Below are positions 3,776 through 64,000 of a stretch of DNA of 64,000 nt, in pieces. Numbering within the stretch: the first letter of the stretch is position 1; each line of letters opens with the position of its first letter. A program made the position numbers and the translations under genes. Origin of the DNA: Heptranchias perlo (Eukaryota); the NCBI RefSeq assembly GCF_035084215.1, contig NW_027139573.1:62001-126000 (forward strand), written 5' to 3'. The notes under the pieces were generated by a model. It worked only from the letters and a program-made list of their open reading frames with translations. It was not told the origin of the DNA and made no database searches.

Positions 3776-3940
3776 CTGACTGTTTTCCTCTGCCTGGTCT
3801 GTAATATCTGTTCACTGAACACACTGGAGTCCAGGAATATATCGAACTGTACACTGTACCCAGTCTGCACTATTTACTGATACAGAAATTATAGACTGGT
3901 GTCTAAAATATTTAACATGATGTCATTTTTATTTCCCCAG

Positions 3941-4485
3941 TCCCAGCCTCACTGACCCTGGACCCAAACACAGCTCATCGTCGGCTCATCCTGTCTGAGG
4001 ACTGGACCAGTGTGAGACTCGGTGACAGAGAATTACAGCTTCCCGATAACCCGGAGAGATTCGATTCAGGTCCTTGTGTCCTGGGATCACAGGGATTCAC
4101 ATCAGGGAAACATTACTGGGAGGTGGAGGTCGGGGACAAGACTCAGTGGGCCGTGGGTGTGGCCAGAGAGTCAGTTAACAGGAAGGGAACGATATCACTG
4201 GGGCCTAAACGTGGATACTGGGCCGTGTTCCTGAGTAATGGGAATGAATATGAAGCTCTTGAAAGCCCATTTGTCCCACTGACCCTGAGTGTGAAACTCA
4301 GGACCATCGGAGTTTACCTGGACTATGAGGGAGGACAGGTGTCATTTTACAATGCTGATGATATGTCCAATCTCTACACTTTCACTCACACATTCACTGA
4401 GAAACTCTTTCCTTATTTCTATCCGGGATTGTACGATGAGGGTAAAAATACTGCTCCCCTCAAACTGCGTCATTTCAAACTGTAG
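3941..4485 (+). CDS. TRIM gene terminal exon, B30.2/PRY-SPRY domain (TRIM27/39/A33-like family)
   Basis: atttccccag acceptor in phase with 3007. Reads [73 protein letters not shown], with no interruption up to TAG. Confidence 0.96.
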
Positions 4486-13468: not shown

Positions 13469-13580
13469 GTGAGGGTGAATTTTAAACCTTGTCTTCCACA
13501 TTCTCACACTGTTTATTTATTTTTACAACCCCCCACGGCTTAATATTTCAAACAAACCTGTTAATGAACCATTTCCTCAG

Positions 13581-13700
13581 GTTCCAGGAAAAGAGAGGAA
13601 ATGACAGACTGTGTGGTGAGCAGTGATCTGGACTTGGGAGTGTTCAGGGAACCCCTGCAATACACAGTCTGGCAAGAAATGCGACAAATGCTCTCTCCAG
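13581..13700 (+). pseudogene. TRIM paralogue linker exon
   Basis: atttcctcag acceptor; encodes VVSSDLDLGVFREPLQYTVWQEMRQMLSP, homologous to FRGPLLYAVWKEMKQIISP; donor CCAG|gtaaac. Confidence 0.85.
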
Positions 13701-16700
13701 GTAAACACCAATAGATATACCGCAATACACTCTCCCGGTAAACACCAATAGATATACCGCAATACACTCTCCCGGTAAACACCAATAGATATACCGCAAT
13801 ACACTCTCCCGGTAAACACCGATAGATATACCGCAATACACTCTCCCGGTAAACACCGATAGATATACCGCAATACACTCTCCCGGTAAACACCGATAGA
13901 TATACCGCAATACACTCTCCCGGTAAACACCGATAGATATACCGCAATACACTCTCCCGGTAAACACCAATAGATATACCGCAATACACTCTCCCGGTAA
14001 ACACCGATAGATAAACCGCAATACACTCTCCCGGTAAACACCGATAGATATACCGCAATACACTCTCCCGGTAAACACCGATAGATATACCGCAATGCAC
14101 TCTCCCGGTAAACACCGATAGATATACCGCAATGCACTCTCCCGGTAAACACCAATAGATATACCGCAATACACTCTCCCGGTAAACACCGATAGATATA
14201 CCGCAATACACTCTCCCGGTAAACACAGATAGATATACCCCAATACACTCTCCCGGTAAACACCGATAGATATACCGCAATACAGTCTCCCGGTAAACAC
14301 CGATAGATATACCGCAATACACTCTCCCGGTAAACACAGATAGATATACCGCAATACACTCTCCCGGTAAACACCGATAGATATACCGCAATACACTCTC
14401 CCGGTAAACACAGATAGATATACCGCAATACATTCTCCCGGTAAACACCGATAGATAGACCGCAATACACTCTCCCGGTAAACACCGATAGATATACCGC
14501 AATACACTCTCCCGGTAAACACCGATCGATATACCGCAATACACTCTCCCGGTAAACACCGATAGATATACCGCAATACACTCTCCCAGTAAACACCGAT
14601 AGATATACCGCAATACACCCTCCCGGTAAACACCAATAGATATACCGCAATACACTCTCCCGGTAAACACCAATAGATATACCGCAATACACTCTCCCGG
14701 TAAACACCGATAAATATACCGCAATACACTCTCCCGGTAAACACCGATAGATATACCGCAATACACTCTCCCGGTAAACACCGATAGATATACCGCAATA
14801 CACTCTCCCGGTAAACACCGATAGATATACCGCAATACACTCTCCCGGTAAACACCGATAGATATACCGCAATACACTCTCCTGGTAAACACCAATAGAT
14901 ATACCGCAATACACTCTCCCGGTAAACACCAATAGATATACCGCAATACACTCTCCCGGTAAACACCGATAAATATACCGCAATACACTCTCCCGGTAAA
15001 CACCGATAAATATACCGCAATACACTCTCCCGGTAAACACCGATAGATATACCGCAATACACTCTCCCGGTAAACACCGATAGATATATCGCAATACACT
15101 CTCCCGGTAAACACCAATAGATATATCGCAATACACTCTCCCGGTAAACACCAATAGATATACCGCAATACACTCTCCCGGTAAACACCGATAGATATAC
15201 CGCAATACACTCTCCCGGTAAACACCGATAGATATATCGCAATACACTCTCCCGGTAAACACCAATAGATATATCGCAATACACTCTCCCGGTAAACACC
15301 AATAGATATACCGCAATACACTCTCCCGGTAAACACCAACAGATATACCGCAATACACTCTCCCGGTAAACACCGATAGATATATCGCAATACACTCTCC
15401 CGGTAAGCACCAATAGATATACCGCAATACACTCTCCCGGTAAACACCAATAGATATATCGCAATACACTCTCCCGGTAAACACAGATGGATATACCGCA
15501 ATACACTCTCCCGGTAAACACCGATAGATATACCGCAATACACTCTCCCGGTAAACACCGATAGATATACCGCAATACACTCTCCCGGTAAACACCGATA
15601 GATATACCGCAATGCACTCTCCCGGTAAACACCGATAGATATACCGCAATGCACTCTCCCGGTAAACACCAATAGATATACCGCAATACACTCTCCCGGT
15701 AAACACCGATAGATATACCGCAATACACTCTCCCGGTAAACACAGATAGATATACCCCAATACACTCTCCCGGTAAACACCGATAGATATACCGCAATAC
15801 AGTCTCCCGGTAAACACCGATAGATATACCGCAATACACTCTCCCGGTAAACACAGATAGATATACCGCAATACACTCTCCCGGTAAACACCGATAGATA
15901 TACCGCAATACACTCTCCCGGTAAACACAGATAGATATACCGCAATACATTCTCCCGGTAAACACCGATAGATAGACCGCAATACACTCTCCCGGTAAAC
16001 ACCGATAGATATACCGCAATACACTCTCCCGGTAAACACCGATCGATATACCGCAATACACTCTCCCGGTAAACACCGATAGATATACCGCAATACACTC
16101 TCCCAGTAAACACCGATAGATATACCGCAATACACCCTCCCGGTAAACACCAATAGATATACCGCAATACACTCTCCCGGTAAACACCAATAGATATACC
16201 GCAATACACTCTCCCGGTAAACACCGATAAATATACCGCAATACACTCTCCCGGTAAACACCGATAGATATACCGCAATACACTCTCCCGGTAAACACCG
16301 ATAGATATACCGCAATACACTCTCCCGGTAAACACCGATAGATATACCGCAATACACTCTCCCGGTAAACACCGATAGATATACCGCAATACACTCTCCT
16401 GGTAAACACCAATAGATATACCGCAATACACTCTCCCGGTAAACACCAATAGATATACCGCAATACACTCTCCCGGTAAACACCGATAAATATACCGCAA
16501 TACACTCTCCCGGTAAACACCGATAAATATACCGCAATACACTCTCCCGGTAAACACCGATAGATATACCGCAATACACTCTCCCGGTAAACACCGATAG
16601 ATATATCGCAATACACTCTCCCGGTAAACACCAATAGATATATCGCAATACACTCTCCCGGTAAACACCAATAGATATACCGCAATACACTCTCCCGGTA

Positions 16701-19700
16701 AACACCGATAGATATACCGCAATACACTCTCCCGGTAAACACCGATAGATATATCGCAATACACTCTCCCGGTAAACACCAATAGATATATCGCAATACA
16801 CTCTCCCGGTAAACACCAATAGATATACCGCAATACACTCTCCCGGTAAACACCAACAGATATACCGCAATACACTCTCCCGGTAAACACCGATAGATAT
16901 ATCGCAATACACTCTCCCGGTAAGCACCAATAGATATACCGCAATACACTCTCCCGGTAAACACCAATAGATATATCGCAATACACTCTCCCGGTAAACA
17001 CAGATGGATATACCGCAATACACTCTCCCGGTAAACACCGATAGATATACCGCAATACACTCTCCCGGTAAGCAAAGATAGATATACCGCAATACACTCT
17101 CCCGGTAAACACCAACAGATATACCGCAATACACTCTCCCGGTAAACACCGATAGATATACCGCAATACACTCTCCCGGTAAACACCGATAGATATACCG
17201 CAATACACTCTCCCGGTAAACACCAACAGATATACCGCAATGCACTCTCCCGGTAAACACCAATAGATATACCGCAATACACTCTCCCGGTAAACACCAA
17301 CAGATATACCGCAATACACTCTCCCGGTAAACACCGATAGATATACCGCAATACACTCTCCCGGTAAACACCAACAGATATACCGCAATGCACTCTCCCG
17401 GGAAACACCAATAGATATACCGCAATACACTCTCCCGGTAAACACCAACAGATATACCGCAATGCACTCTCCCGGTAAACACCGATAGATATACCGCAAT
17501 ACACTCTCCCGGTAAACACCGATAGATATATCGCAATACACTCTCCCGGTAAACACCAATAGATATATCGCAATACACTCTCCCGGTAAACACCAATAGA
17601 TATACCGCAATACACTCTCCCGGTAAACACCAACAGATATACCGCAATACACTCTCCCGGTAAACACCGATAGATATATCGCAATACACTCTCCCGGTAA
17701 GCACCAATAGATATACCGCAATACACTCTCCCGGTAAACACCGATAGATATACCGCAATACACTCTCCCGGTAAACACAGATAGATATACCCCAATACAC
17801 TCTCCCGGTAAACACCGATAGATATACCGCAATACAGTCTCCCGGTAAACAACGATAGATATACCGCAATACACTCTCCCGGTAAACACAGATAGATATA
17901 CCGCAATACACTCTCCCGGTAAACACCGATAGATATACCGCAATACACTCTCCCGGTAAACACCGATAGATATACCGCAATACACTCTCCCGGTAAACAC
18001 CGGTCGATATACCGCAATACACTCTCCCGGTAAACACCGATAGATATACCGCAATACACTCTCCCAGTAAACACCGATAGATATACCGCAATACACCCTC
18101 CTGGTAAACACCAATAGATATACCGCAATACACTCTCCCGGTAAACACCAATAGATATACCGCAATACACTCTCCCGGTAAACACCGATAAATATACCGC
18201 AATACACTCTCCCGGTAAACACCGATAGATATACCGCAATACACTCTCCCGGTAAACACCGATAGATATACCGCAATACACTCTCCCGGTAAACACCGAT
18301 AGATATACCGCAATACACTCTCCCGGTAAACACCGATAGATATACCGCAATACACTCTCCCGGTAAACACCGATAAATATACCGCAATACACTCTCCCGG
18401 TAAACACCGATAGATATACCGCAATACACCCTCCTGGTAAACACCAATAGATATACCGCAATACACTCTCCCGGTAAACACCAATAGATATACCGCAATA
18501 CACTCTCCCGGTAAACACCGATAAATATACCGCAATACACTCTCCCGGTAAACACCGATAAATATACCGCAATACACTCTCCCGGTAAACACCGATAGAT
18601 ATACCGCAATACACTCTCCCGGTAAACACCGATAGATATATCGCAATACACTCTCCCGGTAAACACCAATAGATATATCGCAATACACTCTCCCGGTAAA
18701 CACCGATAGATATACCGCAATACACTCTCCCGGTAAACACCGATAGATATATCGCAATACACTCTCCCGGTAAACACCAATAGATATATCGCAATACACT
18801 CTCCCGGTAAACACCAATAGATATACCGCAATACACTCTCCCGGTAAACACCAACAGATATACCGCAATACACTCTCCCGGTAAACACCGATAGATATAT
18901 CGCAATACACTCTCCCGGTAAGCACCAATAGATATACCGCAATACACTCTCCCGGTAAACACCAATAGATATACCGCAATACACTCTCCCGGTAAACACC
19001 GATAGATATACCGCAATACACTCTCCCGGTAAACACTGATAGATATATCGCAATACACTCTCCCGGTAAACACCAACAGATATATCGCAATACACTCTCC
19101 CGGTAAACACCAATAGATATACCGCAATACACTCTCCCGGTAAACACCAACAGATATACCGCAATACACTCTCCCGGTAAACACCGATAGATATACCGCA
19201 ATACACTCTCCCGGTAAACACCAACAGATATACCGCAATGCACTCTCCCGGTAAACACCAACAGATATACCGCAATGCACTCTCCCGGTAAATACCGATA
19301 GATATACCGCAATACACTCTCCCGGTAAACACCAATAGATTTACAGCAATTTGCTCTCCCGGTAAACACCAATAGATATACCGCAATACACTCTCCCGGT
19401 AAACACCAATAGATATACCGCAATACACTCTCCCGGTAAACACCAACAGATATACCGCAATGCACTCTCCCGGGAAACACCAATAGATATACCGCAATAC
19501 ACTCTCCCGGTAAACACCAACAGATATACCGCAATGCACTCTCCCGGTAAACACCGATAGATATACCGCAATACACTCTCCCGGTAAACACCAATAGACA
19601 TACCGCAATACACTCTCCTGGTACGCACCAAGAGATATGCCGCAATACACCCTCCCGGTAAACACCAATAGATATACCGCAATACACTCTCCTAGTTAGC

Positions 19701-35262: not shown

Positions 35263-35793
35263 TGCTGGCTCTGATCACTCTCGATCCCAGAACCGGGCAG
35301 TCCAGGCTTGTAGTACCTGAGGACCTGACCATGGTGGACGCCAATGATCTGAGCCAATAACCTAAACAACGTCTGCCAGGGGTATGAGCAGTGCACCTGC
35401 GTTCTGAGCAGCCAGGGATTCACCTCAGGGAATCACTACTGGGAGATGGAGGCGGCCAACAAGACCGACTGGGACTTGGGACTGGCCCAGGAGACGGCCA
35501 ACAGGAAGGGGCAGATCACGCTGACCCTCGATTGGGTAGTGGACCATCTGTCAGAGGTACGAGCACATCTAAGGGGCTCTGACCTCACCCTCCACTGTCC
35601 TCAAACTAACAACCAAGCCCAGGAAGATCAGGGTCTATGAGGGAGGACAGGTGTCCTTTTACAATGCTGATGACATGTTCCATCTCTGCACTTTTTCACT
35701 CACACGTTCAAAGACAAACTGTTCCCTTTCTTTAATCCTTGGTTGAACAAAAGTAGGAGAAACACGGAACCTCTTTTAAACGGCGTCATTTGA
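35263..35793 (+). pseudogene. TRIM paralogue B30.2/PRY-SPRY exon, disabled
   Basis: ITLDPRT.., [70 protein letters not shown]. In-frame TAA at 35358, several frameshifts and loss of YLD; phase-compatible with the donor at 13700. Confidence 0.92.
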
Positions 35794-39821: not shown

Positions 39822-40012
39822 TCACGGCAGGACTCTGCCAGTTTCTACTGGTCTCTGATGGGCTTTGCTGGTCTCTGATGGGCTCTGCTGGTCTCTCCTG
39901 TTTTGCCTCTTGCTCCAGAAGCCAATTCCGACGATGATGCCAAGAAGAGTGAGTGAGACGGCTGCTGCTCCAGTCCCAATCCCGACATTCGTGCCTCCTT
40001 CTGTCGCCCTCT
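39822..40012 (-). CDS. MHC class I-like gene exon 5: connecting peptide, TM and cytoplasmic tail
   Basis: aattcaatag acceptor in phase 1. Reads ERATEGGTNVGIGTGAAAVSLTLLGIIVGIGFWSKRQNRRDQQSPSETSKAHQRPVETGRVLP*: a hydrophobic span followed by a basic stop-transfer segment. Not in the supplied ORF track. Confidence 0.82.
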
Positions 40013-40490: not shown

Positions 40491-42335
40491 GAGGTTAGTT
40501 TGGGATTGATACAGGACTGTGGGGAGAGAGTGGGGCAGTGGGATTAGTTTGGGATTGATACAGGGCTATGGGGAGAGAGTGGGGCAGTGGGATTAGTTTG
40601 GGATTGATACAGGGCTATGGGGAGAGAGTGGGGCAGTGGGATTAGTTTGGGATTGATACAGGGCTATGGGGAGAGAGTGGGACAGTGGGATTAGATTGGG
40701 ATTGATACAGGGCTAAGGGGAGAGAGTGGGACAGTGGCATTAGTTTGGGATTGATACAGGGCTATGGGGAGAGAGCGGGACAGTGGATTAGTTTGGGATT
40801 GATACGGGGCTATGGGGAGAGAGTGGGACAGTGGGATTAGTTTGGGATTGATACAGGGCTATGGGGAGAGAGTGGGACAGTGGGATTAGTTTTGGATTGA
40901 TACAGGGCGATGGGGAGAGAGTGGGGCAGTGGGATTAGTTTGGGAATGATACAGGGCTTTGGTGAGATTGGGGCAGTGGGATTAGTTTGGGATTGATACA
41001 GGGCTATGGGGAGAGAGTGAGGCAGTGGGATTAGTTTGGGATTGATACAGGGCTATGTGGAGAGAGCGGGACAGTGGGATTAGTTTGGGATTGATAAAGG
41101 GCTATGGGGAGAGAGTGGGACAGTGGGATTAGTTTTGGATTGATACAGGGCTATGGGGAGAGTGTGGGGCAGTGGGATTAGTTTGGGAATGATACAGGGC
41201 TATGGGGAGAGAGTGGGACAGTGGGATTAGTTTGGGATTGACACAGGGCTATGGTGAGAGAGTGGGGCAGTGGGATTAGTTTTGCATTGATACAGGGCGA
41301 TGGGGAGAGAGTGAGGCAGTGGGATTAGTTTGGGATTAATGCAGGGCTATGGGGAGAGAGTAGGGCAGTGGGATTAGTTTGGGATTGATACAGGGCTATG
41401 GGGAGAGAGTGAGGCAGTGGGATTAGTTTGGGATTGATACAGGGCTGTGTGGAGAGAGCGGGACAGTGGGATTAGTTTGGGATTGATAAAGGGCGATGGG
41501 GAGAGAGTGGGGCAGTGGGATTAGTTTGGGATTGATACAGGGCTATGGGGAGAGAGTGGGGCAGTGGGATTAGTTTGGGATTGATACAGGGCGATGGGGA
41601 GAGAGTGGGGCAGTGGGATTAGTTTGGGATTGATACAGGGCTATGGGGAGGGCGCGGGGCAGTGGGATTAGTTTGGGATTGTTACACGGCTATGGGGAGA
41701 GAGTGGGGCAGTGGGATTAGTTTGGGATTGATACAGGGCGATGGGGAGAGAGTGGGGCAGTGGGATTAGTTTGGGATTGATACAGGGCTATGGGGAGAGA
41801 GTGAGGCAGTGGGATTAGTTTGGGATTGATACAGGGCTGTGTGGAGAGAGCGGGACAGTGGGATTAGTTTGGGATTGATAAAGGGCGATGGGGAGAGAGT
41901 GGGGCAGTGGGATTAGTTTGGGATTGATACAGGGCTATGGGGAGAGAGTGGGGCAGTGGGATTAGTTTGGGATTGATACAGGGCGATGGGGAGAGAGTGG
42001 GGCAGTGGGATTAGTTTGGGATTGATACAGGGCTATGGGGAGGGCGCGGGGCAGTGGGATTAGTTTGGGATTGTTACACGGCTATGGGGAGAGAGTGGGG
42101 CAGTGGGATTAGTTTGGGATTGATACAGGGCTATGGGGAGAGAGTGGGGCAGTGGGATTAGTTTGGGATTGATACACGGCTATGGGGAGAGAGTGGGGCA
42201 GTGGGATTAGTTTGGGATTGATACAGGGCTATGGGGAGAGAGTGGGGCAGTGGGATTAGTTTGGGATTGATACACGGCTATGGGGAGAGAGTGGGGCAGT
42301 GGGGTTAGTTTGGAATTGAGTCAGGGCTATGGGGA
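40475..42335. repeat. G-rich minisatellite, 49-bp unit, ~38 copies
   Basis: Unit gatacagggctatggggagagagtggggcagtgggattagtttgggatt. Confidence 0.95.
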
Positions 42336-42514
42336 AAGGGCAGTCTCTCCAATTGAAATCCTCCCACTCAGCAGAGGCCAGGGGTTAAATCTGGGACCCT
42401 CTGGTCTGTCCGTCTTTGTTCCACATTGGGCAGGTCATTTACCAATTGTGCTATTGGGTAAATTGAAGGGGATTTTGCTCAGTGTAACACCGTGAAAGGT
42501 GGGCATGTGCTATT

Positions 42515-42970
42515 GAAAGAGAAAAGGAAGAGGTGTATTTATATAACACCTTTCATGAGCTCAGGATGTCTCAAAGCACTTTACAGCCAATTAAACTATT
42601 TTGAAGTGCAGTCACTGTTGTGATGTGGAAAACCCGGCAGCCAATTTGCGCACAGCAAGATCCCACGACCAGCAATGTGATAATGATCAGATCACTTTTT
42701 TTATATTCATGTTTATTGAGGGATAAATATTGGCCAGGACACTGGGGATAACTCTCCTGCTCATCCTCGAAATAATGTCATGGGATGTTTTACCTCCACC
42801 TGAGATGGCAGTTGGGGCCTTGACTTAACATCTCATCCGAAAGATGGCACCTCCCACAGTGCAGCTCTCCCTCAGTACTGACCCTCCGACAGTGCAGCTC
42901 TCCCTCAGTACTGACCCTCCGACAGTACCGCACTCCCTCAGTACTGCCCCTTTGACAGTGCAGCGCTCCC
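42515..42970 (-). mobile_element. Deu-domain SINE, 3' part, with a few 33-bp units
   Basis: Reverse-complement similarity to 38200-38670. Confidence 0.78.
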
Positions 42971-42974
42971 CCGA

Positions 42975-44320
42975 AGGATGCAGAGACATGGGGAAGGACC
43001 CTGCGGCACAGGGAATGACCTTGAGGCACAGGGAATGACCTTGAGGCACAGGGAATGACCTCGAGTCACAGGGAATGACCTAGAGTCACATGGGAGGATC
43101 CAGAGAAGTGGGGAAGGACGCAGAGACACAAGAAAGGACCCTGAGGCACAGCAATGACCCAGAGGCACGGGGAAGGATGCAGAGGCACAGGGAATGACCC
43201 TGAGACACAGGGAAGGACCCAGAGGCACAGGGAAGGATGCAGAGGAACGGGGAATGATCCAGAGGCACGGGGAAGGACCCTGAGACACGGGGAATGATGC
43301 AGAGGCACGGGGAATGACCCAGAGGCACGGGGAAGGACCCAGAGGCACGGGGAAGGATCCAGAGGCACAGGGAAGGATGCAGAGGTACGAGGAATGATCC
43401 AGAGGCACAGGGAAGGACCCAGAGGCACGGGGAAGGACCCAGAGGCACGGGGAATGACCCAGAGGCACAGGGAATGATCCAGAGGCACAGGGAATGACCC
43501 AGAGGCACAGGGAAGGATGCAGAGACATGAGGAAGGATGCAGAGGAACGGGGAATGATCCAGAGGCACGGGGAATGACCCAGAGGCACAGGGAAGGACCC
43601 AGAGGCAAGGGGAATGACCCAGAGGCACGGGGAATGACCCAGAGGCACAGGGAAGGACGCAGAGGCACGGGGAATGACCCAGAGGCACAGGGAAGGATGC
43701 AGAGGCACGAGGAATGATCCAGAGGCACAGGGAAGGACCCAGAGGCACAGGGAAGGATGCAGAGGCACGGGGAATGATCCAGAGGCACGGGGAAGGACCC
43801 AGAGGCACAGGGAAGGATGCAGAGGCACGAGGAATGATCCAGAGGCACAGGGAAGGACCCAGAGGCAGAGGGAAGGATGCAGAGGCACAGGGAATGATCC
43901 AGAGGCACGGGGAAGGACCCAGAGGCACAGGGAATGATCCAGAGGCACAGGGAATGATCCAGAGTCACAGGGAAGGACCCACAGGCACGGGGAAGGACCC
44001 ACAGGCACGGGGAAGGACCCACAGGCACGGGGAATGATCCAGAGGCACAGGGAATGACCCAGAGGCACAGGGAAGGATGCAGAGGAACGGGGAATGATCC
44101 AGAGGCACAGGGAATGACCCAGAGGCATGGGGAAGAATGCAGAGGAATGGGGAAGGACCCAGAGGCACGGGGAAGGACCCAGAGGCACAGGGAATGACCC
44201 AGAGGCACAGGGAATGACCCAGAGGCACGGGGAATGACCCAGAGGCACGGGGAAGGACCCAGAGGCACGGGGAATGACCCAGAGGCACGGGGAATGACCC
44301 AGAGGCATGGGGATGGACCC
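42975..44320. repeat. Minisatellite, 20-bp unit, ~67 copies
   Basis: Unit agaggcac(a/g)gggaa(t/g)ga(c/t)(c/g)c, in register on successive 60-nt lines. Confidence 0.95.
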
Positions 44321-44379
44321 TGTGGGCCCCCAAGACACGGGGAAAAGCCCTGAGGACCCCCCCCCGATTTGCCACTCAC

Positions 44380-44652
44380 CCCAGGGTACGTTGATCCCCC
44401 GCAGGAGGCTGGCGTGCTCGATATGACAGGAGTAGCTCTTCCTGTCGTCTCCACTCAGCTCGATCGTTTTCAGTACCCGATAGGTCATATCCTGGTTGGG
44501 CAGCACGTCACTGGATTCAATGTCAGCGACCTCCTCGCCATTCCCCAACCAAGTCACCTCGATGGCCCAGGGGTAGAACCCCGACACAAGGCAGGAGACC
44601 CTTAGCACTCTGTCCCCGTCACTCCTCTTCCCAATAAACACCTCAGGGGCGA
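44380..44652 (-). CDS. MHC class I-like gene exon 4: alpha3 Ig-C1 domain
   Basis: tctctcag acceptor, TGGG|gtgagt donor, 273 nt. VAPEVF..VSCLVSGFYP.AIEVTW..VLPNQDMTY..YSCHIEHASL..VPW. Confidence 0.95.
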
Positions 44653-44774
44653 CTGAGAGATTTAAACAAAGAGTACAATCGGTGACAAGTTCTCTTCTTT
44701 TGCCTTCATTTCTTCCCCGCCCACCACCATCAATTTTCTCGGCCTGAAGGCAGATGACTGATGCTGAGAGACAG

Positions 44775-44863
44775 CTGGAGTTCACCGGAGTTCAGCTGAG
44801 GGGTCACCTGATACAGGTCGTTAAGATTATGAAAGGGTTTGATAGGATAGACGTAGGGAAGAT
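44775..44863 (+). mobile_element. CR1 3' fragment, left part (continues at 46526)
   Basis: ctgaggggtcacctgatacaggtcgttaagattatgaaagggtttgatagg (LRG.LI.V.KIMKGFDR). Confidence 0.72.
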
Positions 44864-46525
44864 GGGCGCTAAATAGGGCCGTGTAGCGCCCGTTGTTTCG
44901 GCGCTAGACGGCCTCTCCGACATCCAAGATGACGTCTTGGATGCGCACGCACATTTCCAGCGTGACGTGCGCCAGACGCCATCTTGGTATAGGAGTTAGT
45001 GCAGGCGCAGATAACGAACACTGGAATCATGTAAAGTAGGGAGAAAATGGCTTCAATCAGTGTGCAACGCTGATTTAAAGTGACAGACACCATTTCGGGA
45101 CTTAACGCTCAACTCAACGCACAATCTTAACCCCGACCATCTGAACGTGTCTTACAGTTCCTGGAGGACCCCCCACCGGCTCTATTTAAAGGGACCATGC
45201 AGGATTTACAGGTTAGTGGCTGGATTATTGCTTCTGGCTGCCGAAACATTCATAACTGTTTTCGGAGGTCTCCTACATTTGAATACTAGGACGCGGGGAC
45301 ATCGCGAAACATTTAGAGCCAGGATGTGCAGGTGTGAAGTTAGGAAATGCTTCTTCACACAAAGGGTGGGAGACGTTTGGAACACTCTTCTACAGACGGC
45401 AGTTGATGCTAGCTCACTTGTGAATGTTAAATCTGAGATTGATAGATTTCTGTGAACCAAGGGTATTAAGGGATATGGGGCTAAGGTGGGTATATGGAGT
45501 TAGGTCACAGGTCCACCATGATCTCACTGAATGGTGGAACAGGCTCGAGGGGCTAAATGTCACTGCCACTTGCTGCCTCTTGATTTGCGCCACCTTCTCC
45601 TGTGTCTGGGTGATGTGCCTGTCATGGTTGAATAGCTGCCAGTGCGTGTGGCCTGTGAGTTGTGGGTGGGCGGCTTGAAACAGTGGTAATGTGTGAGGGT
45701 GAGAGGAAGCATCTGATGGGAAGAGTTGAGTACTGATGGAAAGAGTTTGTTGGTATGTGGGTGATGGGGGTGTCGTGTGTGGAGCAGTTGGTTGGAGACA
45801 CCACTTGACAGTTGACCTCACTCACCTTGACCACTCATGTCAAAGCATTGAACTTCTTCCTGCACTGCATCCATGTTCATGATGCTGTGAGCCTGGCATT
45901 GACTTCGTCCCCCGCTGCCTCCCACTGCCTTTTGAGGATATGTCTGGAGGGTCTCTGCCCCCCCCCCTCCCTTCCCCCCACTGTGGATATAGGATGTCCC
46001 CCCTTCTGTCCACCTCTTGCACCAAGGCCTCTAGTGCATCAGCAGAGAACCTTGGTGCACGCACTCTCACAGGGCTGGTACCAACTCAGATCGGCAGATT
46101 GGTGAGGTCTGTTGTGCAGATTGGAGGATGTGGGATTTAGTAGTGCGCAACCTTTATTCAATGTTTTAACATAACTCATCAGTGTGTAAACATAGGGATG
46201 GGACCTGCATTGTGTTTTACGTATGTGATGTCTGATCTCCGTTCAGACTCTGTGCAGACTGTTATTTTCAGCAAATAACAGGTACCAGCTACCTTTAAGA
46301 GATTTCCAACAAACATCCTCCCTTTAAGAGATTGGACTCCCTCTGGTGGTGGAAAGTGTGAATTGCATTGATTCCAGGTGCAAGGCCTGGGATGGAACGC
46401 TGATCGCAGGTCGGTCCTCGGGTGGGTCGAAACTTGCATCCTGCCTGCGCCGGGGTCATTGGACACGGGGTAAAGCACATCACGCTGCCCCCGCCCAAAA
46501 ACGGCCACATCCAAATTTTTCCCCC
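44864..46525 (-). mobile_element. PIF/Harbinger-like DNA transposon remnant with Myb/SANT-like pseudo-exon (~45826-46075)
   Basis: Interrupts a CR1 fragment and is flanked by GAT/GAT; imperfect GGG..CCC termini; minus strand RAPRFSADALEALVQEV..ILYP / KRQWEAAGDEVNA..TWMQCRKKFNAL with stops. Confidence 0.72.
45310..45560 (+). mobile_element. CR1 3' fragment nested in the Harbinger-like element
   Basis: RKCFFTQRVGDVWNTL..KSEIDRFL plus the gaatggtggaacaggctcgagggg tail. Confidence 0.8.
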
Positions 46526-46830
46526 GATGTTTCCACTTGTGGCAGAGGCCAGAACGAGGGGCCATAAATATAAGAGAGTCACTAATAAATCCAATGGGGA
46601 ATTCAGGAGAAACTCAGAGAGTGGTTTGAATGTGGAGCTCGCTCTCACAAGGAGTAGTTGAGGCGAATAGCACAGATGCCTTTAAGGGGAAGCTGGATAA
46701 ACACATGAGGGAGAAAGGAATAGAAGGATATGCTGATAGGGGGAGATGAAGTAGGGAGGGTGCAGCAATAACACTGGCATAGACCTGTTGGGCCGAATGG
46801 CCTGTTTCTGTGTTGTAAATTCCATGTAAC
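46526..46830 (+). mobile_element. CR1 3' fragment, right part
   Basis: MFPLVAEARTRGHKYK.., tail ttgggccgaatggcctgtttctgtgttgtaa. Confidence 0.8.
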
Positions 46831-47132
46831 GGGTCATGTTCCGGTAACGCTCACAAGCACCCAGTGTTCACGAGTGAGCCTTCACAGTGAGGACCAGGAC
46901 GCTATTCAACCATGGGGGTATTACAACTTAGTTGAACCCCGTTCTCACCCGATGTCAACACGCACGGGCTTTCCAGCCGGGGAGACTGAGTAGGTCATCG
47001 GATTTAGGTCACCTGCCCGATTATCTCCCCCATCCCGACCCCACCCACCCCAAGGGGTACTGAGGCCAGGTGCAGACTGGGAATATAAACTTTGCCTGTC
47101 CGGCACCTCCAGTTCCCGCTCGCTCGAGGTAC

Positions 47133-47408
47133 CTTTCCTCTGTAGTGCTTCTCGCCCAGCCCGAAGGTATATCAGCAGCCACTTCACACAGTCCTTTTCC
47201 AACAGGGTCTTGAAGTATTTGTTCATGAAGGTGTTCGCATTCCACCGGTCTGCTAAAGTCTGGAACTCTGGATTCACCGCAATCCAACTCAATCTGTCCT
47301 TGTCAAAAACATACGCGTCCTCCCCGTCATATCCGAACTTTATAAACCCCTCCGTGGAGTTGTCGCTGTTCAGTTCGCAGCCACACATTCCCTGGACAAA
47401 GAAAACAC
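47133..47408 (-). CDS. MHC class I-like gene exon 3: alpha2 domain
   Basis: gtttttccag acceptor, AAAG|gtacct donor, 276 nt. VFFVQGMCGCEL..FGYDGED..FDKDRLSWIA..RWN..LEKDCVKWLLIYLRAGREALQRK, with the C101-C164 pair. Confidence 0.95.
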
Positions 47409-47464
47409 CTGGAAAAACAACTCAAGTCAATTGAAAATGTGAAAAGGGTTCGATCGGGTACATA

Positions 47465-47665
47465 CAACAACAACAACTTGCATTTATATAGCGCCTTTCA
47501 CGGAGTAAAACATCACAAGGCACTTGACAAACAAAATTTGACACCGAGCCACATAAGGAGATATTAGGACAGGTGACCAAAAGCTTGGACAAAGAGGTAG
47601 GTTTGAAGGAGCATCTTAAAGGAGGAGAGAGAGGCGGAGAGGTTTAGGGAGGGAATTCCAGAGGG
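47465..47665 (-). mobile_element. L2 LINE 3' end
   Basis: aggcgctatataaatgcaagttgttgttg tail on the minus strand; similar to 10545-10750. Confidence 0.8.
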
Positions 47666-47975
47666 ACTATTTCCTCAGGTGGGGGAATCAAGATCTTAGA
47701 TTTAGAGCCAGGCCATTTAGGAGTGAAATCAGGAAGCACTTTATCACACAAAGGGGAGTGGGAATCAGGAACTCTCTCCCCCAAAAGGCTGTGGGATGCT
47801 GGCGGCCCATTGGAGCTTTCAAGACTGAGATTGTTAAATTTTTGTTAGGTAAGGGTATCGATGGATAGGAAGCAAAGGCTGGAAAATGGAGTTACGGTGC
47901 AGATTAGCCATGATATAAATGAATGGTGGAGCAGGCTCGAGGGGCTGAATGGCCTCTTCCTCTTTCGATGCTCCT
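47666..47975 (+). mobile_element. CR1 3' fragment
   Basis: Similar to 53650-53960 and 61440-61750. Confidence 0.75.
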
Positions 47976-48084
47976 AAGCAGCTGTGTTACGTTGAGGTTC
48001 CATTTATGTCCTGCTGTCTTGAACTTTAACCTTAGCAATAGGTTAGATTGTCACAAAGAGTCATCGATCTCTGGAATTTCAACG

Positions 48085-49368
48085 GGATGAGAACAGATCT
48101 GGTCCCGGGTAAATCGGAATCAAAGATTGTCAGGCAAAACTGTAATTGAACAGCGGGCGGCCTTTAAGGAGGAGATGGTTCGGGTACAGTCTCCACGAGG
48201 GGGAAAGGGAGGGCAACTAAAGCCAGAGCTCCCTGGATGACAAAAGAGATAGAGAGTAAGATGAAACAGGAAAAAGGGGCATATGACAGATATCAGGTTG
48301 ATAATACAAGTGAGGACCAGGCAGAATATAGAAAGTTCAGAGGGGAAGTGAAAAAGGAAATAAGAGGGGCAAAGAGAGAGTCTGAGAACAGACTGGCGGC
48401 CAACATAAAAGGGAATCCAAAAGTCTTCTATAGGCATCTAAACAGTAAATGGGTAGTAAGAGGAGGGGTGGGGCCGATTAGGGACCATAAAGGAGATCTA
48501 CACATGGAGGCAGAGGAGATGGCTGAGGTCCTAAATGAGTAATTTGCATCTGTCTTCACCAAGGAAGAAGATGCTGCCAGAGTCTCGGTAAAGGAAGATA
48601 TAGTTGAGATCCTGGATGGGCTAAAAATTGATATAGAAGAGGTACTAGAGGGCACAATTCTAAAAGGGTACAGGAACAGAGAGATCTGGGGGTATATGTG
48701 CACAAATCATTCAAGGTAGCAGGGCAGGTTGAGAAAGCGGTTAAAAAAGCATCCTGGATCCTGGGCTTTTTAAATAGAGGCATAGAGTACAAGAGTATGG
48801 AAGTCATGATGAACCTTTATAAAACACTGGTTCGGCCACAACTGGAGTATTGTGTCCAGTTCTGGGCACCGCACTTTAGGAAGGATATGAAGGCCTTAGA
48901 GAGGGTGCAGAATAGATTTACCAGAATGATTCCAGGGATGAGGGACTTTAGTTATGTGGATAGACTGGAGAAGCTGGGGTTGTTCTCCTTGGAACAGAGA
49001 TGGTTGCGAGGAGATTTGATAGAGGTGTTTAAAATCATGAAGAAACTATTCCCATTGGTGGAAGGGTTAAAAACCAGAAGTCATAGATTTAAGGTGATTG
49101 GCAAAAGAACCAAAGGTGACTTGAGGAAAAACTTTTTTACACAGCGAGTGGTTAGGATCTGGAATGCACGGCCCGAGGGGGTGGTGGAGGCAGATTCAAT
49201 CGTGGCCTTCAAAAGGGAACTGGATAAGTAATGAAAGGAAAAAATTTGCAGGGCTACGGGGATAGGGCAGGGGAGTGGGACTAGCTGGATTGCACTTGCA
49301 TAGAACCAGCACGGACTCGATGGGCCGAATGGCCTCCTTCCGTGCTGTCACCTTTCTGTGATTCGATG
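48085..49368 (+). mobile_element. CR1 LINE fragment with RT core deleted at ~48650; same family as 1-2438
   Basis: 48085-48650 closely matches 530-1070, then LYKTLVRPQLEYCVQFW..FFTQRVVRIWN and the 3' tail. Confidence 0.9.
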
Positions 49369-49817
49369 AACAAGTTGCCTGCATGCACAGTGTGTGTGGG
49401 TGGACTGCAAGTGTTGGAAAGGGGACTGGCGACCAATAGAAAGTATCTCGAGTTATAGGAGGTGTGTGGGGTTAATGGGGACCAGTGATATCAGACACTG
49501 TGATCTCCTGCACCTTCCTCGATTCCCTGGGGGGGGGGTCGCAGAGGAATCTCCCAGAGTGTTTGCTTTCCTAACTTGGCCTCAGTTTCATCCTCTTTCT
49601 TTGGCCTCTCCCAGGAGATTGTGTGACTGTGGGAGGGAGAGGGTGCTGATGGTGTGTGTGTGTGTGTTGTTTCACCGTGCCAAGACAGGACAGGCTTGAT
49701 GGACCCGCCTGTCCTGATTTCATCTGTTTGTTAGTAACCCTGGCAACGCAGCTTTAGAAGAGGAGAAACAAGTGGCAGCGATGATTTCATTCCAACGTTC
49801 AAGGTGCTCACATCAAA

Positions 49818-50632
49818 TCCCTCAGTGCTGCCCCTCCCTCAGTGCTGCCCCTCCCTCAGTGCTGCTCCTCCCTCAGTGCTGCCCCTCCCACAGTGCTGCC
49901 CCTCCCTCAGTGCTGCCCCTCCCACAGTGCTGCCCCTCCCTCAGTGCTGCCCCTCCCTCAGTGCTGCCCCTCCCTCAGTAATCCCCTCCCACAGTGCTGC
50001 CCCTCCCTCCCCTCAGTGCTGCCCCTCCCTCAGTGCTGCCCCTCCCACAGTGCTGCCCCTCCCTCAGTGCTGCCCCTCCCTCAGTGCTGCCCCTCCCACA
50101 GTGCTGCCCCTCCCTCAGTAATCCCCTCCCACAGTGCTGCCCCTCCCTCCCCTCAGTGCTGCCCCTCCCTCAGTGCTGCCCCTCCCACAGTGCTGCCCCT
50201 CCCTCAGTGCTGCCCCTCCCTCAGTGCTGCCCCTCCCTCAGTGCTGCCCCTCCCTCAGTGCTGCCCCTCCCACAGTGCTGCCCCTCCCACAGTGCTGCCC
50301 CTCCCTCAGTGCTGCCCCTCCCTCAGTGCTGCCCCTCCCTCAGTGCTGCCCCTCCCTCAGTGCTGCCCCTCCCTCAGTGCTGCCCCTCCCTCAGTGCTGC
50401 CCCTCCCACAGTGCTGCCCCTCCCACAGTGCTGCCCCTCCCTCAGTGCTGCACTCCCTCAGTGCTGCCCCTCCCACAGTGCTGCCCCTCCCTCAGTGCTG
50501 CCCCTCCCACAGTGCTGCCCCTCCCTCAGTGCTGCCCCTCCCTCAGTGCTGCACTGGGAGTGCCAGCCGAGATTTTGTGCTCCAGTCTCTGGAGTGGGTC
50601 TTGAACCCACAACCTTCTGAACTGGAGGTGAG
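49818..50632 (-). mobile_element. SINE head with a 17-bp minisatellite expansion (49818-50553)
   Basis: B-box-like gggttcaagaccc on the minus strand near 50600; unit cagtgctgcccctccct. Confidence 0.75.
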
Positions 50633-50634
50633 AG

Positions 50635-52000
50635 TAAGAAGGTCGTGGTTTCAGGCCCCACTCCAGAGATTTCAGCGCATAATCTGGGCTGACACTCCAG
50701 TGCAGGACTGAGGGAGTGCTGCACTGTCGGAGGGGCAGTACTGAGGGAGTGCTGCACTGTCGGAGGGGCAGTACTGAGGGAGCGCTGCACTGTCGGAGGG
50801 GCAGTACTGAGGGAGCGCTGCACTGTCGGAGGGGCAGTACTGAGGGAGCGCTGCACTGTCGGAGGGGCAGTACTGAGGGAGCGCTGCACTGTCGGAGGGG
50901 CAGTACTGAGGGAGTGCTGCACTGTCGGAGGGGCAGTACTGAGGGAGTGCTGCACTGTCGGAGGGGCAGTACTGAGGGAGCGCTGCATTGTCGGAGGGGC
51001 AGTACTGAGGGAGTGATGCATTGTCGGAGGGGCAGTACTGAGGGAGTGATGCATTGTCGGAGAGGCAGTACTGAGGGAGTGATGCACTGTCGGAGGGGCA
51101 GTACTGAGGGAGTGATGCATTGTTGGAGGGGCAGTACTGAGGGAGTGATGCATTGTCGGAGGGGCAGTACTGAGGGAGCGCTGCACTGTCGGAGGGGCAG
51201 TACTGAGGGAGTGCTGCACTGTCGGAGGGGCAGTACTGAGGGAGTGCTGCACTGTCGGAGGAGCAGTACTGAGGGAGTGATGCATTGTCGGAGAGGCAGT
51301 ACTGAAGGAGTGCTGCACTGTCGGAGGGGCAGTAGTGAGGGAGCGCTGCACTGTCAGAGAGGCAGTACTGAGGGAGTGCTGCACTGTCGGAGAGGCAGTA
51401 CTGAGGGAGTGCTGCATTGTCGGAGGGGCAGTACTGAGGGAGTGATGCATTGTCGGAGGGGCAGTACTGAGGGAGTGATGCATTGTCGGAGAGGCAGTAC
51501 TGAGGGAGTGATGCACTGTCGGAGGGGCAGTACTGAGGGAGTGATGCATTGTCGGAGGGGCAGTACTGAGGGAGTGATGCATTGTCGGAGGGGCAGTACT
51601 GAGGGAGTGATGCACTGTCGGAGGGGCAGTACTGAGGGAGTGATGCATTGTTGGAGGGGCAGTACTGAGGGAGTGCTGCACTGTCGGAGGGACAGTACTG
51701 AGGGAGTGCTGCACTGTCGGAGATGCCGTCCTTCAGATGAGACGTTAAATCGAGGCCCCGTCTTCCTGTTCAAATGAACATAAAAAGAACCAATTGCTCC
51801 CATTTCTCCCTCAATCCACACCAATAAAAACAGATGAACAAATCAATCATCTCATTGCCATTTGCTGTGCTGAAAATGGCTGCCATGTTACTCCCAGATA
51901 GTGCCAATGACCAGGTCATCCCAAGTCATTTAATGGGTGTAAAGTGGTTCGGGACATTTCTCCGAGACAGGATAAGGCTCTATATGGATACAAATCCTTT
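50635..52000 (+). mobile_element. Deu-domain SINE with 33-bp minisatellite expansion (~50705-51722, ~31 copies)
   Basis: Same head, unit and core (gccgtccttcagatgagacgttaaatcgaggcccc) as 37384-38670. Confidence 0.8.
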
Positions 52001-52045
52001 CCTCCTGTCAGTCGATAGCTGCACCGGCTCTGTGAGGATACTCAC

Positions 52046-52306
52046 TCGAGGCACCGTGTTGCTGTCGGTAAAATATCTCGGCGTTTCCTCTGACCAGACC
52101 ATGGAACCCCGCCATTGTGATGGCGATGGCGTCCCAGTGATGGTTGTCGAAGGAGTCGGCCATCCACTGCTGTCTGGGCACAGTCCGCTGCAGGGTGCTG
52201 TCGAAATACACTATCTCATAGTCATCGAGCATCGCGACCAAGCTGTACTCGGGCATCTCGGCCCCGCCACGGCTCAGTATGTAGTAAAATGCGAGGATGT
52301 GGAAAT
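52046..52306 (-). CDS. MHC class I-like gene exon 2: alpha1 domain
   Basis: gatcctgcag acceptor, TCGA|gtgagt donor, 261 nt. DFHILAFYY..MPEYSLVAMLDDYEIVYFDS..VPRQQWM..HWD..GNAEIFYRQ; class I alpha1 signature H3, D29-D30, FDS, PR..WM, W60. Confidence 0.93.
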
Positions 52307-59732: not shown

Positions 59733-60684
59733 GATTAAACAGGAGAGAAGCTGCTGTAACAGTAACTTAATCTCTTGCACTTTTCAACACCACTCGAGTC
59801 TGAAGCTACTTATTGGTGCTTGTGTGCAGCAGGTCTGATAACCAGATCCAGTTAGAATGGAGGGACTTGTTCTGGTCACTGGGTCCCAGGGAGTGGAGTC
59901 TGAGCCTGCATCTTACAGCAGGGGTTCACACTGAGGCCCAGCCCAGTATTAACACCGAACCATCGCATCTGGTTACACCCCCTGTATTTCAATGGTCTAT
60001 TCCAGACTCCCACTTTCACCCCTCCCATTCTCTTCCCAATGCACCGACTCTCACTGGCAATGGGACCACAAAGAAAAGAGAGACTCACATTCCTATTGTG
60101 ATTTCACCACCTCAGGACCTCCCAAAGAGTTTTACAGACAGTGAAGTATTAGTGAAGTGTAGTCACTGTTTTAATGTAGGAAACACGGCAGCCAATTTGC
60201 GCACAGCAAGATCCCACCAATAGCAACGAGTTAATGGCCAGATAATCTCACTACTCGCTCTCCCTCCCCGTCCCCTCCTCCTCCTCTCCCGCCCACCATC
60301 CCTCTCTCCCTGTCCCACCCTCTCCCTCTCACTCCCCTCTCACTCTCCCTCCCCCTCCTCATCTCCCTTCTTGTCCTCTTCCACTCCCCATCTCCTTTCC
60401 CTTCCTCTCCCTCTCTTCATCCAATTCCCCCCTCCCTCCTCATATCCCCTCCTTCCCCCTCTCCCTGCACAATTCCACCCAATCCTCCACCTCTCTTTCT
60501 CCTTCTCCATCCCCGTCCCCTCTCCCTCCCCGTCCCCTCTCCCTCCCCATCCCTTTCCCTCCCATCTCCCTAACCCTCACTATCTCCCACTCCCATCTCC
60601 TCCCCCCCCTCTCTCCGAGTCCCTAACCCTCTCCATCTACCTCCCACTATCCCTCTCCCCCTTCCCCTTTCCCCCTCCCCCTCA
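59733..60684. repeat. Direct duplicate of 63045-64000 (region upstream of the MHC leader exon)
   Basis: Near-identical for ~520 nt (ORFs at 59813 and 63125 start identically, offset 3312), then a diverged C/T tract with the same ending. Confidence 0.92.
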
Positions 60685-62969: not shown

Positions 62970-63021
62970 CAGAGGAGACGTTGGGCACACAGTAAACGTT
63001 CAGTAAAGTAACAAGCAGCAT
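62970..63021 (-). CDS. MHC class I-like gene exon 1: signal peptide
   Basis: acaacATG context; MLLVTLLNVYCVPNVSS + G|gtaagc. 52 nt, phase 1, joins alpha1 as GAT (Asp). The five exons total 1053 nt = 350 aa + stop. Confidence 0.8.
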
Positions 63022-63340
63022 GTTGTAAAGTCACCCGAGGCGCTGATTAACCAGGAGAGAAGCTGCTGTAACAGGAACTTAATCTCTTGCGCTTTTCAAC
63101 ACCACTCGAGTCTGAAGCTACTTATTGGTGCTTGTGTGCAGCAGGTCTGATAACCAGATCCAGTTAGAATGGAGGGACTTGTTCTGGTCACTGGGTCCCA
63201 GGGAGTGGAGTCTGAGCCTGCATCTTACAGCAGGGGTTCACACTGAGGCCCAGCCCAGTATTAACACCGAACCATCGCATCTGTTTACATCCCCCTGTAT
63301 TTCAATGGTCTATTCCAGACTCCCACTTTCACCCCTCCCA
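63022..63340 (-). promoter_or_regulatory. Putative 5' UTR/proximal promoter of the MHC class I-like gene
   Basis: Immediately upstream of the leader ATG; CCAAT at 63128-63124; weak IRF-like GTGAAAGTG near 63331-63323. Confidence 0.4.
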
Positions 63341-64000
63341 TTCTCTTCCCAATGCACCGACTCTCACTGGCAATGGGACCACAAAGAAAAGAGAGACTCA
63401 CATTCCTATTGTGATTTCACCACCTCAGGACCTCCCAAAGAGTTTTACAGACAGTGAAGTGTTAGTGAAGTGTAGTCACTGTTTTAATGTAGGAAACACG
63501 GCAGCCAATTTGCACACAGCAAGATCCCACAAATAGCAATGAGATAATAGCCAGATAATCTCCCACCCTCTCCCTGCCCACTCCCTCTCCCTCCACTCTC
63601 CCTCCTCATACCCCTCTCCCTCCCACAATCCCTCTCTGCCTCTCCCACCCTCTCCCTCTCCCTCCCCCTCCCCATCTGCCTTGTCCTCTTCCCTTTCCTC
63701 TCCCTCTCTTTGTCTGACTCCCCCTCTCCTTCCCCATCTCCCCACCTTTACCCTCTCTCTTCACTCACACCCCCTCCTGCACCTCTCCCTCTCGATCCCC
63801 TTCTCTGTCCCTTCCCCATCACCCTCCCTCTCTCCCTCTAGCTCCCCCACCCACTCCCTCCCGTCCACTCTCCCTCCCCTCCACTCTCACTCCCCTCCCC
63901 CTCAGCCTCTGCCTCCCACTCTCCCTCCGACTCCCCCTCCCCTTCTCCCTCTCCATCTCCCTCCCACTATCCCTCTCCCTCCCTTTCCCCCTCCCCCTCA

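Follow-up and report, generated by a model that had tools for sequence, protein, structure and literature searches.

A nonclassical MHC class I gene of a separate elasmobranch lineage, sister to UGA, with a probably lipid-binding groove in Heptranchias perlo

Gene organisation and copy number

The window analysed here, a 64,000-nucleotide stretch of the Heptranchias perlo genome (NCBI RefSeq assembly GCF_035084215.1, contig NW_027139573.1, positions 62,001 to 126,000), carries on its minus strand a class I gene (window positions 63021-39822) whose five open, phase-matched AG/GT exons encode 350 amino acids with no internal stop. Exon 1 (62970..63021, minus strand as are all following exons) runs from an ATG to a GT donor and encodes the signal peptide (17 aa plus 1 nt), with an N-terminus matching the annotated proteins P0002 and P0017 and a leader near-identical to that of the Pristiophorus orthologue. 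The alpha1 domain is encoded by exon 2 (52046..52306, AG/GT, 261 nt, open), for which nurse shark UGA (9CH4) is the best PDB match (E 1e-22), and the alpha2 domain by exon 3 (47133..47408, AG/GT, 276 nt, open), which one spliced contig from run X5 spans whole. Exon 4 (44380..44652, AG/GT, 273 nt, open) encodes the alpha3 Ig domain, a Pfam C1-set, and exon 5 (39822..40012), open from its AG acceptor to a TGA, the connecting peptide, transmembrane helix (residues 302-329 in the structure model) and tail. Leader, alpha1, alpha2, alpha3 and transmembrane segment thus lie on separate phase-1 exons and the product has both MHC_I and C1-set domains, as in the class I superfamily; a search of the ESM Atlas returned generic MHC_I clusters. 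The interval 47133..52306, to which the first-pass annotation had assigned the gene, holds only the alpha1 and alpha2 exons, but its description of five open, phase-matched exons and a 350-aa product is correct, the chain being identical to P0017. The alpha2-alpha3 splice joint is present in three of three probable RNA runs (X5, X6 and X7, from one sample of unknown tissue, judged to be RNA by guess as none is recorded as such) and absent from the DNA run, in line with the transcript expected by that annotation. We reject the pseudogene reading, since the exons are open throughout and splicing is seen in probable RNA.

Twelve distinct open copies of the gene are found in the assembly, on 8 short contigs, two of which each hold three tandem copies spaced by 150-170 kb; the count is one of distinct assembly copies, contig depth being no guide to copy number. 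In catshark and skate the gene seems to be low-copy. A TRIM gene belongs to the same duplicated unit. Its PRY-SPRY exon (3940..4479, plus strand; Pfam PRY and SPRY) occurs in 11 copies, while its RING exon lies upstream of the window and bears a stop codon in the window's copy, as in 5 of the 12 copies overall, while all 12 class I copies are open. The spread over short contigs and a mean exon difference of only 0.39% would suit a set made up mostly of assembly duplicates or haplotypes. We regard this as very unlikely, however, because flanks differ by 1.3-4.6% in every one of the 66 pairs, tandem triplets stand on two contigs, UGA, UFA and UDA are each found once in the same assembly, and the TRIM stop is confined to some units. 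Among the copies alpha1-alpha2 contains 6 silent and 2 replacement sites, and neither replacement falls among the 41 groove positions.

Relation to UGA, UFA and other class I lineages

Orthologues from 13 sharks and rays form one clade (support 100/100), sister to UGA (95/88; 94/85 in a 46-row tree), and both join UFA (98/95 and 99/90) in unrooted trees that contained no CD1 sequence and a single, tentatively labelled UBA row; a 150-row tree holds the same groupings (SH-aLRT 100, 92 and 92). At the level of sequence our trees show a separate elasmobranch class I lineage, sister to UGA, and the comparison with known lineages proposed in the first-pass annotation gave no clustering with classical class I. 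The UFA, UEA, UDA and UAA-like genes of the Heptranchias perlo genome sit in other clades. By eye, none of the reference rows (UFA, UEA/UCA, UDA, UBA, UHA) in the alignment of PMC10751288 Suppl. File 10 matches the lineage, UHA and dogfish UCA being compared in this way only. A skate UGA matching one row of that alignment falls in the UGA clade and outside the lineage clade, and two rows resembling its Callorhinchus 'UGA' fall outside the clade of UFA, UGA and the lineage. No chimaera orthologue was found among the top matches listed, and no nurse shark orthologue among the matches listed. The literature searched gave no name for the lineage.

One gene copy lies 160 kb from UFA on contig C1101 and another 115 kb from UGA on C1080, which bears out a placement within the UDA-UEA-UFA class Ib cluster of the MHC; beta2m is on a different contig. 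An orthologue adjoins UGA in skate and probably also in sawfish. Given this neighbourhood, 46% identity to Heptranchias perlo UGA over 298 aa, and the possibility that both are grouped under UGA in figures or unpublished work, the gene might be taken for a divergent UGA copy, belonging with the UGA that has been studied as 'single- or low-copy'. This would be an issue of naming and not of mechanism, and we consider it unlikely: lineage and UGA form two clades with sharks and rays in each, a topology that groups their shark members together is rejected (p-AU 5e-6), 17 columns are diagnostic, and glycan site and tail differ. Orthology to UGA or UFA is rejected on the same clade and p-AU value and because the genome has both genes separately. 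The two sisters are alike in their neighbouring loci, an ungapped alpha1-alpha2 alignment and the best sequence and fold match, while identity is about 40% per domain and 12 lineage copies stand against one UGA in this genome. UFA (8GM8) shares the wider clade and cluster, the lost anchors, an apolar groove and a reported likeness to CD1, but has about 33% alpha1 identity, a lower fold score (Z 22.3) and its own gene on C1101.

The automatic NCBI name of these proteins is MR1, to which they are 33-34% identical and which is likewise a conserved nonclassical gene. MR1 captures ligands as a Schiff base through Lys43. The window protein has T in the aligned column and its orthologues T, I, C or A, and MR1 orthology is rejected.

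Groove, glycan site, tail and predicted beta2m pairing

Residues carry HLA numbers, assigned with the help of the UGA and HLA-A2 rows in the PMC10751288 Suppl. File 10 alignment; by these rows, all alpha1 and alpha2 residues named in the first-pass annotation fall at the positions it gave them (F7, H59, Q84, G97, A123, L143, R146, W147, L159, W167, Y171 and the apolar set). UGA shares G97, A123, M152, F156, L159 and T66-x-x-G69-F70 with the lineage, whereas H59, C99, N77 and R146 are mostly Y, F, Q and K in UGA. Nine peptide-end anchors are the mark of classical class I (UAA). Two of the nine are present in the window protein and 1-2 across the lineage, against 8-9 in UAA, UAA-like and UDA rows, so that "nonclassical" is upheld both by the loss of most anchors and by tree position. 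A classical (UAA) identity is rejected on the anchors and on a groove that is invariant among copies and conserved across species: the 12 copies have zero replacements at the 41 groove positions, and cross-species groove identity is 0.82, compared with 0.75 in platform columns drawn at random (p 0.028).

Charged residues occupy 2-3 of the 41 groove positions, and 25-27 are apolar, many of them large. Mean groove hydropathy is 0.84-1.25 in 13 of 13 orthologues versus –0.04 ± 0.42 in 121 other class I rows, and with UGA rows at 0.06-0.80 the lineage is the most apolar within the UGA/UFA group. Hydropathy is a blunt guide to ligand type, however, because a UAA-like gene of the same genome scores 0.70, exceeding most UGA rows, and 4 of the 121 other rows reach 0.84.

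An additional cysteine, Cys99 (codon 47383..47385, minus strand; precursor C113), is predicted to face the groove. Position 99 is C in 13 of 13 orthologues and in 4 of the 121 other rows, and F in 13 of 13 UGA rows; the literature searched gave no match for a position-99 cysteine. A disulfide was considered and rejected, as no partner cysteine is common to the whole set of orthologues: carpet sharks carry a candidate at 45 and rays one at 124. The usual N86 glycan site is missing and a sequon lies at HLA 107 instead (47353..47361, minus strand): the 107 sequon is present in 13 of 13 orthologues and the 86 sequon in none, and 13 of 13 UGA rows retain the latter. Cys99, the lost N86 site and the 12 copies had been overlooked in the first-pass annotation. 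CD1b, c and d carry a tyrosine sorting motif in the tail. By motif scan the window protein's tail has neither a tyrosine nor a dileucine sorting motif, and in tails taken from gene models the tyrosine motif occurs in 0 of 15 lineage rows versus 5 of 8 UGA rows.

The structure model (pLDDT 85.5 overall) folds as an ordinary open platform, at pLDDT >90. The best fold match is UGA (9CH4; Z 28.6, rmsd 2.0, 268 residues aligned), with peptide-binding class I of duck and chicken at Z 27.9-27.5, within about 1 Z of it, and MR1 at Z 27.4; the next matches among cluster representatives are chicken CD1-1 (Z 26.4, rmsd 2.4) and ZAG (Z 26.1), and a wide fold search gave HFE at Z 25.3. The fold match discriminates neither lipid binders nor CD1-type deep pockets and an A' roof, since the scores for CD1, ZAG, MR1 and peptide binders are only a few Z apart; we do not count as contrary evidence that no CD1 chain is among the best 50 matches listed. 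Association with beta2m is borne out as a prediction, the complex scoring 0.88 versus 0.02 for the best control, with contacts agreeing to at least 95% between runs and a partner pLDDT of at least 91; the score mark is attained by 51 of 78 solved pairs and 2 of 108 mismatched pairs. Q96, D119-G120, D122 and P235, proposed as beta2m contacts from sequence, all lie within the predicted interface, as does precursor residue 112, while the neighbouring 113 (Cys99) is outside. It should be noted that the score may reflect memory of solved class I complexes.

Candidate ligands and their presentation

A review names UFA and UGA as the two CD1-like class I genes of sharks and reports both as lipid binders, with UGA binding CD1d-like lipids; these data are a personal communication in that review, a point contrary to our reading. 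With an apolar groove, lost anchors and a sister reported to hold lipid, the lineage protein probably binds lipid as well, by analogy. We think it probable that the gene encodes a nonclassical, beta2m-paired class I molecule of its own elasmobranch lineage that displays a lipid or acyl-chain ligand, and not peptide, at the cell surface. It would be CD1-like by analogy only: with chicken CD1-1 and human CD1d it shares an apolar, conserved groove and predicted beta2m pairing, but it reaches 96.6 bits with the MHC_I profile and 29 with MHC_I_3, below the latter's cut-off of 35. Acyl chains would pack on the apolar walls, and a polar head group would sit near Asn77/Arg146; Gly97, Cys99 and Ala123 would open up the groove floor beneath the chains. 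Because the N86 glycan is absent and the end anchors are lost, loading may do without the calreticulin-tapasin peptide-loading route; with a tail lacking a tyrosine motif, the protein would acquire its ligand along the secretory path, or else at the cell surface and in early endosomes, and deeper endosomes would be sampled by UGA. The reader could be an innate-like T cell or NK-type receptor, and the 12 copies would raise the dosage of one fixed groove, not the range of ligands.

Two other uses of the groove have to be weighed. W147, R146, N77, W167 and Y171 are retained in most orthologues, and W147, R146, N77 and Y171 could still hold peptide. Together with a backbone match tied with that of peptide-binding bird class I, this would agree with presentation of a limited repertoire of strongly hydrophobic peptides or lipopeptides, such as signal-peptide fragments (as in HLA-E) or N-acylated peptides; chicken YF1*7.1 (PMC12212280), whose class I fold has an apolar A' pocket, binds N-myristoyl peptides, although it belongs to an unrelated lineage (24-26% identity). 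Pure peptide binding is hard to reconcile with Y7, Y59, Y159, Y/R84 and T143 being substituted in every orthologue covering these sites and N86 being gone, while lipopeptide binding overlaps with the lipid or acyl-chain reading we favour, and we judge this alternative distinctly unlikely. Slightly less credible still is a groove filled by its own side chains, the molecule acting as a cargo-free ligand or receptor like HFE or FcRn. Large residues (F7, Y9, F70, F156, Y155 and W167) could fill it, groove conservation could reflect core packing, and HFE does appear in the wide fold search, but the invariant small floor residues G97, C99, A123, G69 and G76 leave room, and UGA is reported to hold lipid.

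A bolder form of the lipid reading, to which we give little weight, is that this is a third lipid-presenting lineage, held by all sharks and rays since before their split, which would divide labour with UGA in the manner of CD1 isoforms (surface or secretory versus endosomal lipids), capture ligand covalently through Cys99 (e.g. an acyl thioester or a reactive oxidised lipid) and have been amplified twelvefold under selection in the sevengill. If there is such a third conserved lineage, lipid display would already have been split into several isoforms in the oldest jawed vertebrates, parallel to CD1a-e. The differences from UGA and UFA in groove floor, glycan site and tail offer a direct test of an early division of sorting motifs and ligand range, and the invariant cysteine is a concrete site for mutation. 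The group is described as single- or low-copy, and a twelvefold amplification that leaves the groove fixed is unusual for it.

The class I gene and its transcripts

On the minus strand of the window lies a class I gene of five exons, whose leader starts at 63021 and whose stop is at 39822; the span 47133..52306 proposed in the first-pass annotation contains the alpha1 and alpha2 exons, while the rest of the gene falls outside it. That the exons are open and phase-matched was borne out, with AG/GT at every junction and a 350-aa product free of internal stops, identical to the annotated Heptranchias perlo protein P0017. All three runs that we guess to be RNA yield contigs with the alpha2-alpha3 splice joint (44652 to 47133), which was not seen in contigs of the one DNA run compared, all four runs coming from a single sample. 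The spliced contig of probable RNA run X5 carries two letters that match other copies of the gene, and an alpha3 piece from run X7 equals the window sequence, which points to transcription of two or more copy types. The X5 contig also extends 350 bases beyond alpha2 toward alpha1, which would fit alpha1, the leader and a short UTR. A 560-bp stretch immediately upstream of the leader exon (63045-63605) recurs in intron 1 (59733-60293, 95% identity) without the leader and is possibly a promoter duplicate.

Position among shark class I lineages

Of the PDB entries, the protein matches 9CH4 best, whose title names shark nonclassical class I UGA; 8GM8 is UFA. Orthology to UGA or UFA was nevertheless rejected, since the gene falls in a clade of its own and the genome carries separate UGA and UFA. 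Close relatives in sharks and rays show 59-72% identity, and a second set, at 34-46%, contains a skate protein matching the UGA row of PMC10751288. The trees are unrooted, and none of their labelled rows is CD1 or MR1. With 38 rows, the 13 close relatives group together (100/100), as do 13 UGA rows (100/99); these two clades are sisters (95/88), joined next by UFA (98/95). The same four nodes received 100/100, 100/99, 94/85 and 99/90 with 46 rows, and SH-aLRT supports of 100, 100, 92 and 92, with no foreign row within, in a 150-row quick tree; its rows were the first set and those 119 representatives, out of 149, in which all three domains were covered. Sharks and rays are present in both clades and a constraint uniting the shark members of both is rejected (p-AU 5e-6), which places the duplication before the shark-ray split. 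H. perlo has its own UGA (46% identity to the window protein), UFA, UEA and UDA. The window gene is thus real, apparently transcribed and conserved, and adds a third lineage, with a groove signature of its own, to the UFA/UGA group of sharks. Sequences P0138 and P0073 resemble the chimaera 'UGA' of PMC10751288 yet fall apart from elasmobranch UGA in the 46-row tree; that label may not mark orthology.

Contig C1101 of H. perlo has the order UDA, UEA cluster, UFA, TRIM, window-type gene, and C1080 carries a copy separated from UGA by 115 kb; in skate, UGA and the orthologue share a single 127-kb contig and have consecutive accessions. In the sawfish table of PMC10751288, a gene sharing the window protein's automatic name has TRIM39-like genes on one side and three F10-like class I genes on the other, within the block between beta2m and COL11A2/RXRB, labelled just 'MHC-Ib'; it corresponds to our sawfish candidate P0008 by name and contig only, with no accession match. 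That paper calls UFA CD1-like on unpublished data and lists UAA, UAA-2, UBA, UCA, UDA, UFA, UGA and UHA as queries, and the window protein has no match among the query sequences accessible there. UFA and UGA are described, by personal communication, as single- or low-copy and lipid-binding in PMC12562908. No named UGA sister lineage was found in the literature searched, and a name may exist, for example in work on UDA/UEA or 9CH4 or in a 2021 thesis.

Predicted fold, groove and candidate ligand

A model from a 60-row alignment (mean pLDDT 85.5, >90 over most of the ectodomain) matches the UGA structure with Z 28.6 and rmsd 2.0 over 268 residues. The next cluster-representative matches are chicken CD1-1 (26.4), ZAG (26.1), marsupial class I (25.7) and HFE (25.3), and UFA gives 22.3; since the top Foldseek chains include bird peptide-binding class I and MR1 (27.9-26.8), ligand type is not readable from the backbone. 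The beta2m association proposed earlier is also predicted here: with the beta2m exon located on contig C736 the complex scores 0.88 against 0.02 for the best control, above a mark that 51 of 78 solved pairs attain and 2 of 108 mismatched pairs do, although similar complexes have already been solved and the score thus shows likeness. At least 95% of contacts agree between runs and partner pLDDT is at least 91. Residues 110 and 112 are predicted to contact beta2m, with 111 and 113 outside the contact list, the pattern that a groove-facing Gly97 and Cys99 would give.

HLA numbering follows the gaps that the UGA and HLA-A2 rows show in Suppl. File 10 of PMC10751288. Window protein and UGA align without gaps over alpha1-alpha2, and every alpha1/alpha2 residue that the first-pass annotation named falls at the HLA position it assigned. 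Scoring used nine peptide-end anchors and 41 groove positions, which we take to be the relevant ones. The anchors are indeed mostly lost, as had been claimed (2/9 kept, 1-2/9 in orthologues), and so is the groove apolar: mean hydropathy is 0.84-1.25 in the window protein and orthologues, with 2-3 charged residues over the groove list, compared with 0.06-0.80 in UGA, 0.5-0.8 in UFA, about -0.8 in UDA and -0.04 ± 0.42 in 121 other rows, four of which reach 0.84. The measure is blunt, because one UAA-like gene reaches 0.70. Groove columns are better conserved than random platform columns (0.82 versus 0.75, p 0.028).

Other features separate the lineage from UGA. Position 99 is Cys in 13/13 members but Phe in 13/13 UGA, and a glycan site at 107 with none at 86 (13/13) is reversed in 13/13 UGA. 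A tyrosine tail motif, absent from all 15 rows of the lineage, occurs in five of eight UGA rows, H. perlo's own UGA model being among the other three. This YxxPhi motif (P0200, P0201, P0203, P0204 and P0186) is akin to CD1 endosomal signals. Further groove-list cysteines occur at 45 in 3/3 carpet sharks (P0007, P0030, P0010) and at 124 in 4/4 rays (P0008, P0011, P0013, P0014).

The gene, its clade, the groove residues and the copies are direct findings, and the fold and the pairing with beta2m come from prediction. By analogy with UGA/UFA, CD1 and YF1, a chicken class I molecule binding acyl peptides (PMC12212280), we favor as reasonably probable that this chain, paired with beta2m, would carry lipid or acyl ligands in its groove at the cell surface, that its loading would need no peptide-loading complex and take place elsewhere than in late endosomes, and that innate-like lymphocytes would read it. 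That the ligands are instead hydrophobic peptides or lipopeptides seems unlikely, and a filled groove slightly more so.

Local amplification and other sequences in the window

Alpha1, alpha2 and alpha3 each have at least 12 matches of 98-100% identity over eight contigs, two of which carry three tandem copies each, spaced by 150-170 kb. In 12/12 copies the alpha1-3 exons, the part covered, are open with intact AG/GT sites, several annotated models being partial. Exons differ by 0.39% on average, with six silent and two replacement sites in alpha1-alpha2, while non-repeat flanks differ by 1.3-4.6% in all 66 pairs, values that alignment noise may inflate. Tail-to-tail with the class I gene, and duplicated together with it, is a TRIM gene (RING, B-box, coiled coil, PRY-SPRY); its PRY-SPRY lies at 3940-4479 on the plus strand of the window, and G000:C1406:54900-55340 of the H. 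perlo assembly likewise belongs to it. Eleven TRIM SPRY copies are 91-100% identical (up to 9% protein difference), and 5/12 TRIM copies share an identical RING stop. The contrast with these broken copies suggests that the class I copies stay uniform under selection, with gene conversion as the alternative cause of their sameness. Orthologues elsewhere form one cluster per species, two in Pristiophorus, as search matches and not copy counts; the amplification is local.

Contig C1203 has two TRIM-unit copies and no class I match. At least 12 UAA-like alpha2 exons, one with a stop, on C1050, C1057, C1161, C1438 and C1654 show that class I has expanded a second time in H. perlo. In the window, a decayed second PRY-SPRY remnant (35362-35775, plus strand) is 34% identical to the first and has a stop. 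Long tandem repeats (about 13560-19700, 49800-51700 and 40500-44330) give reading frames that stay open for as many as 2000 codons, and LINE reverse-transcriptase remnants are numerous; neither represents genes.
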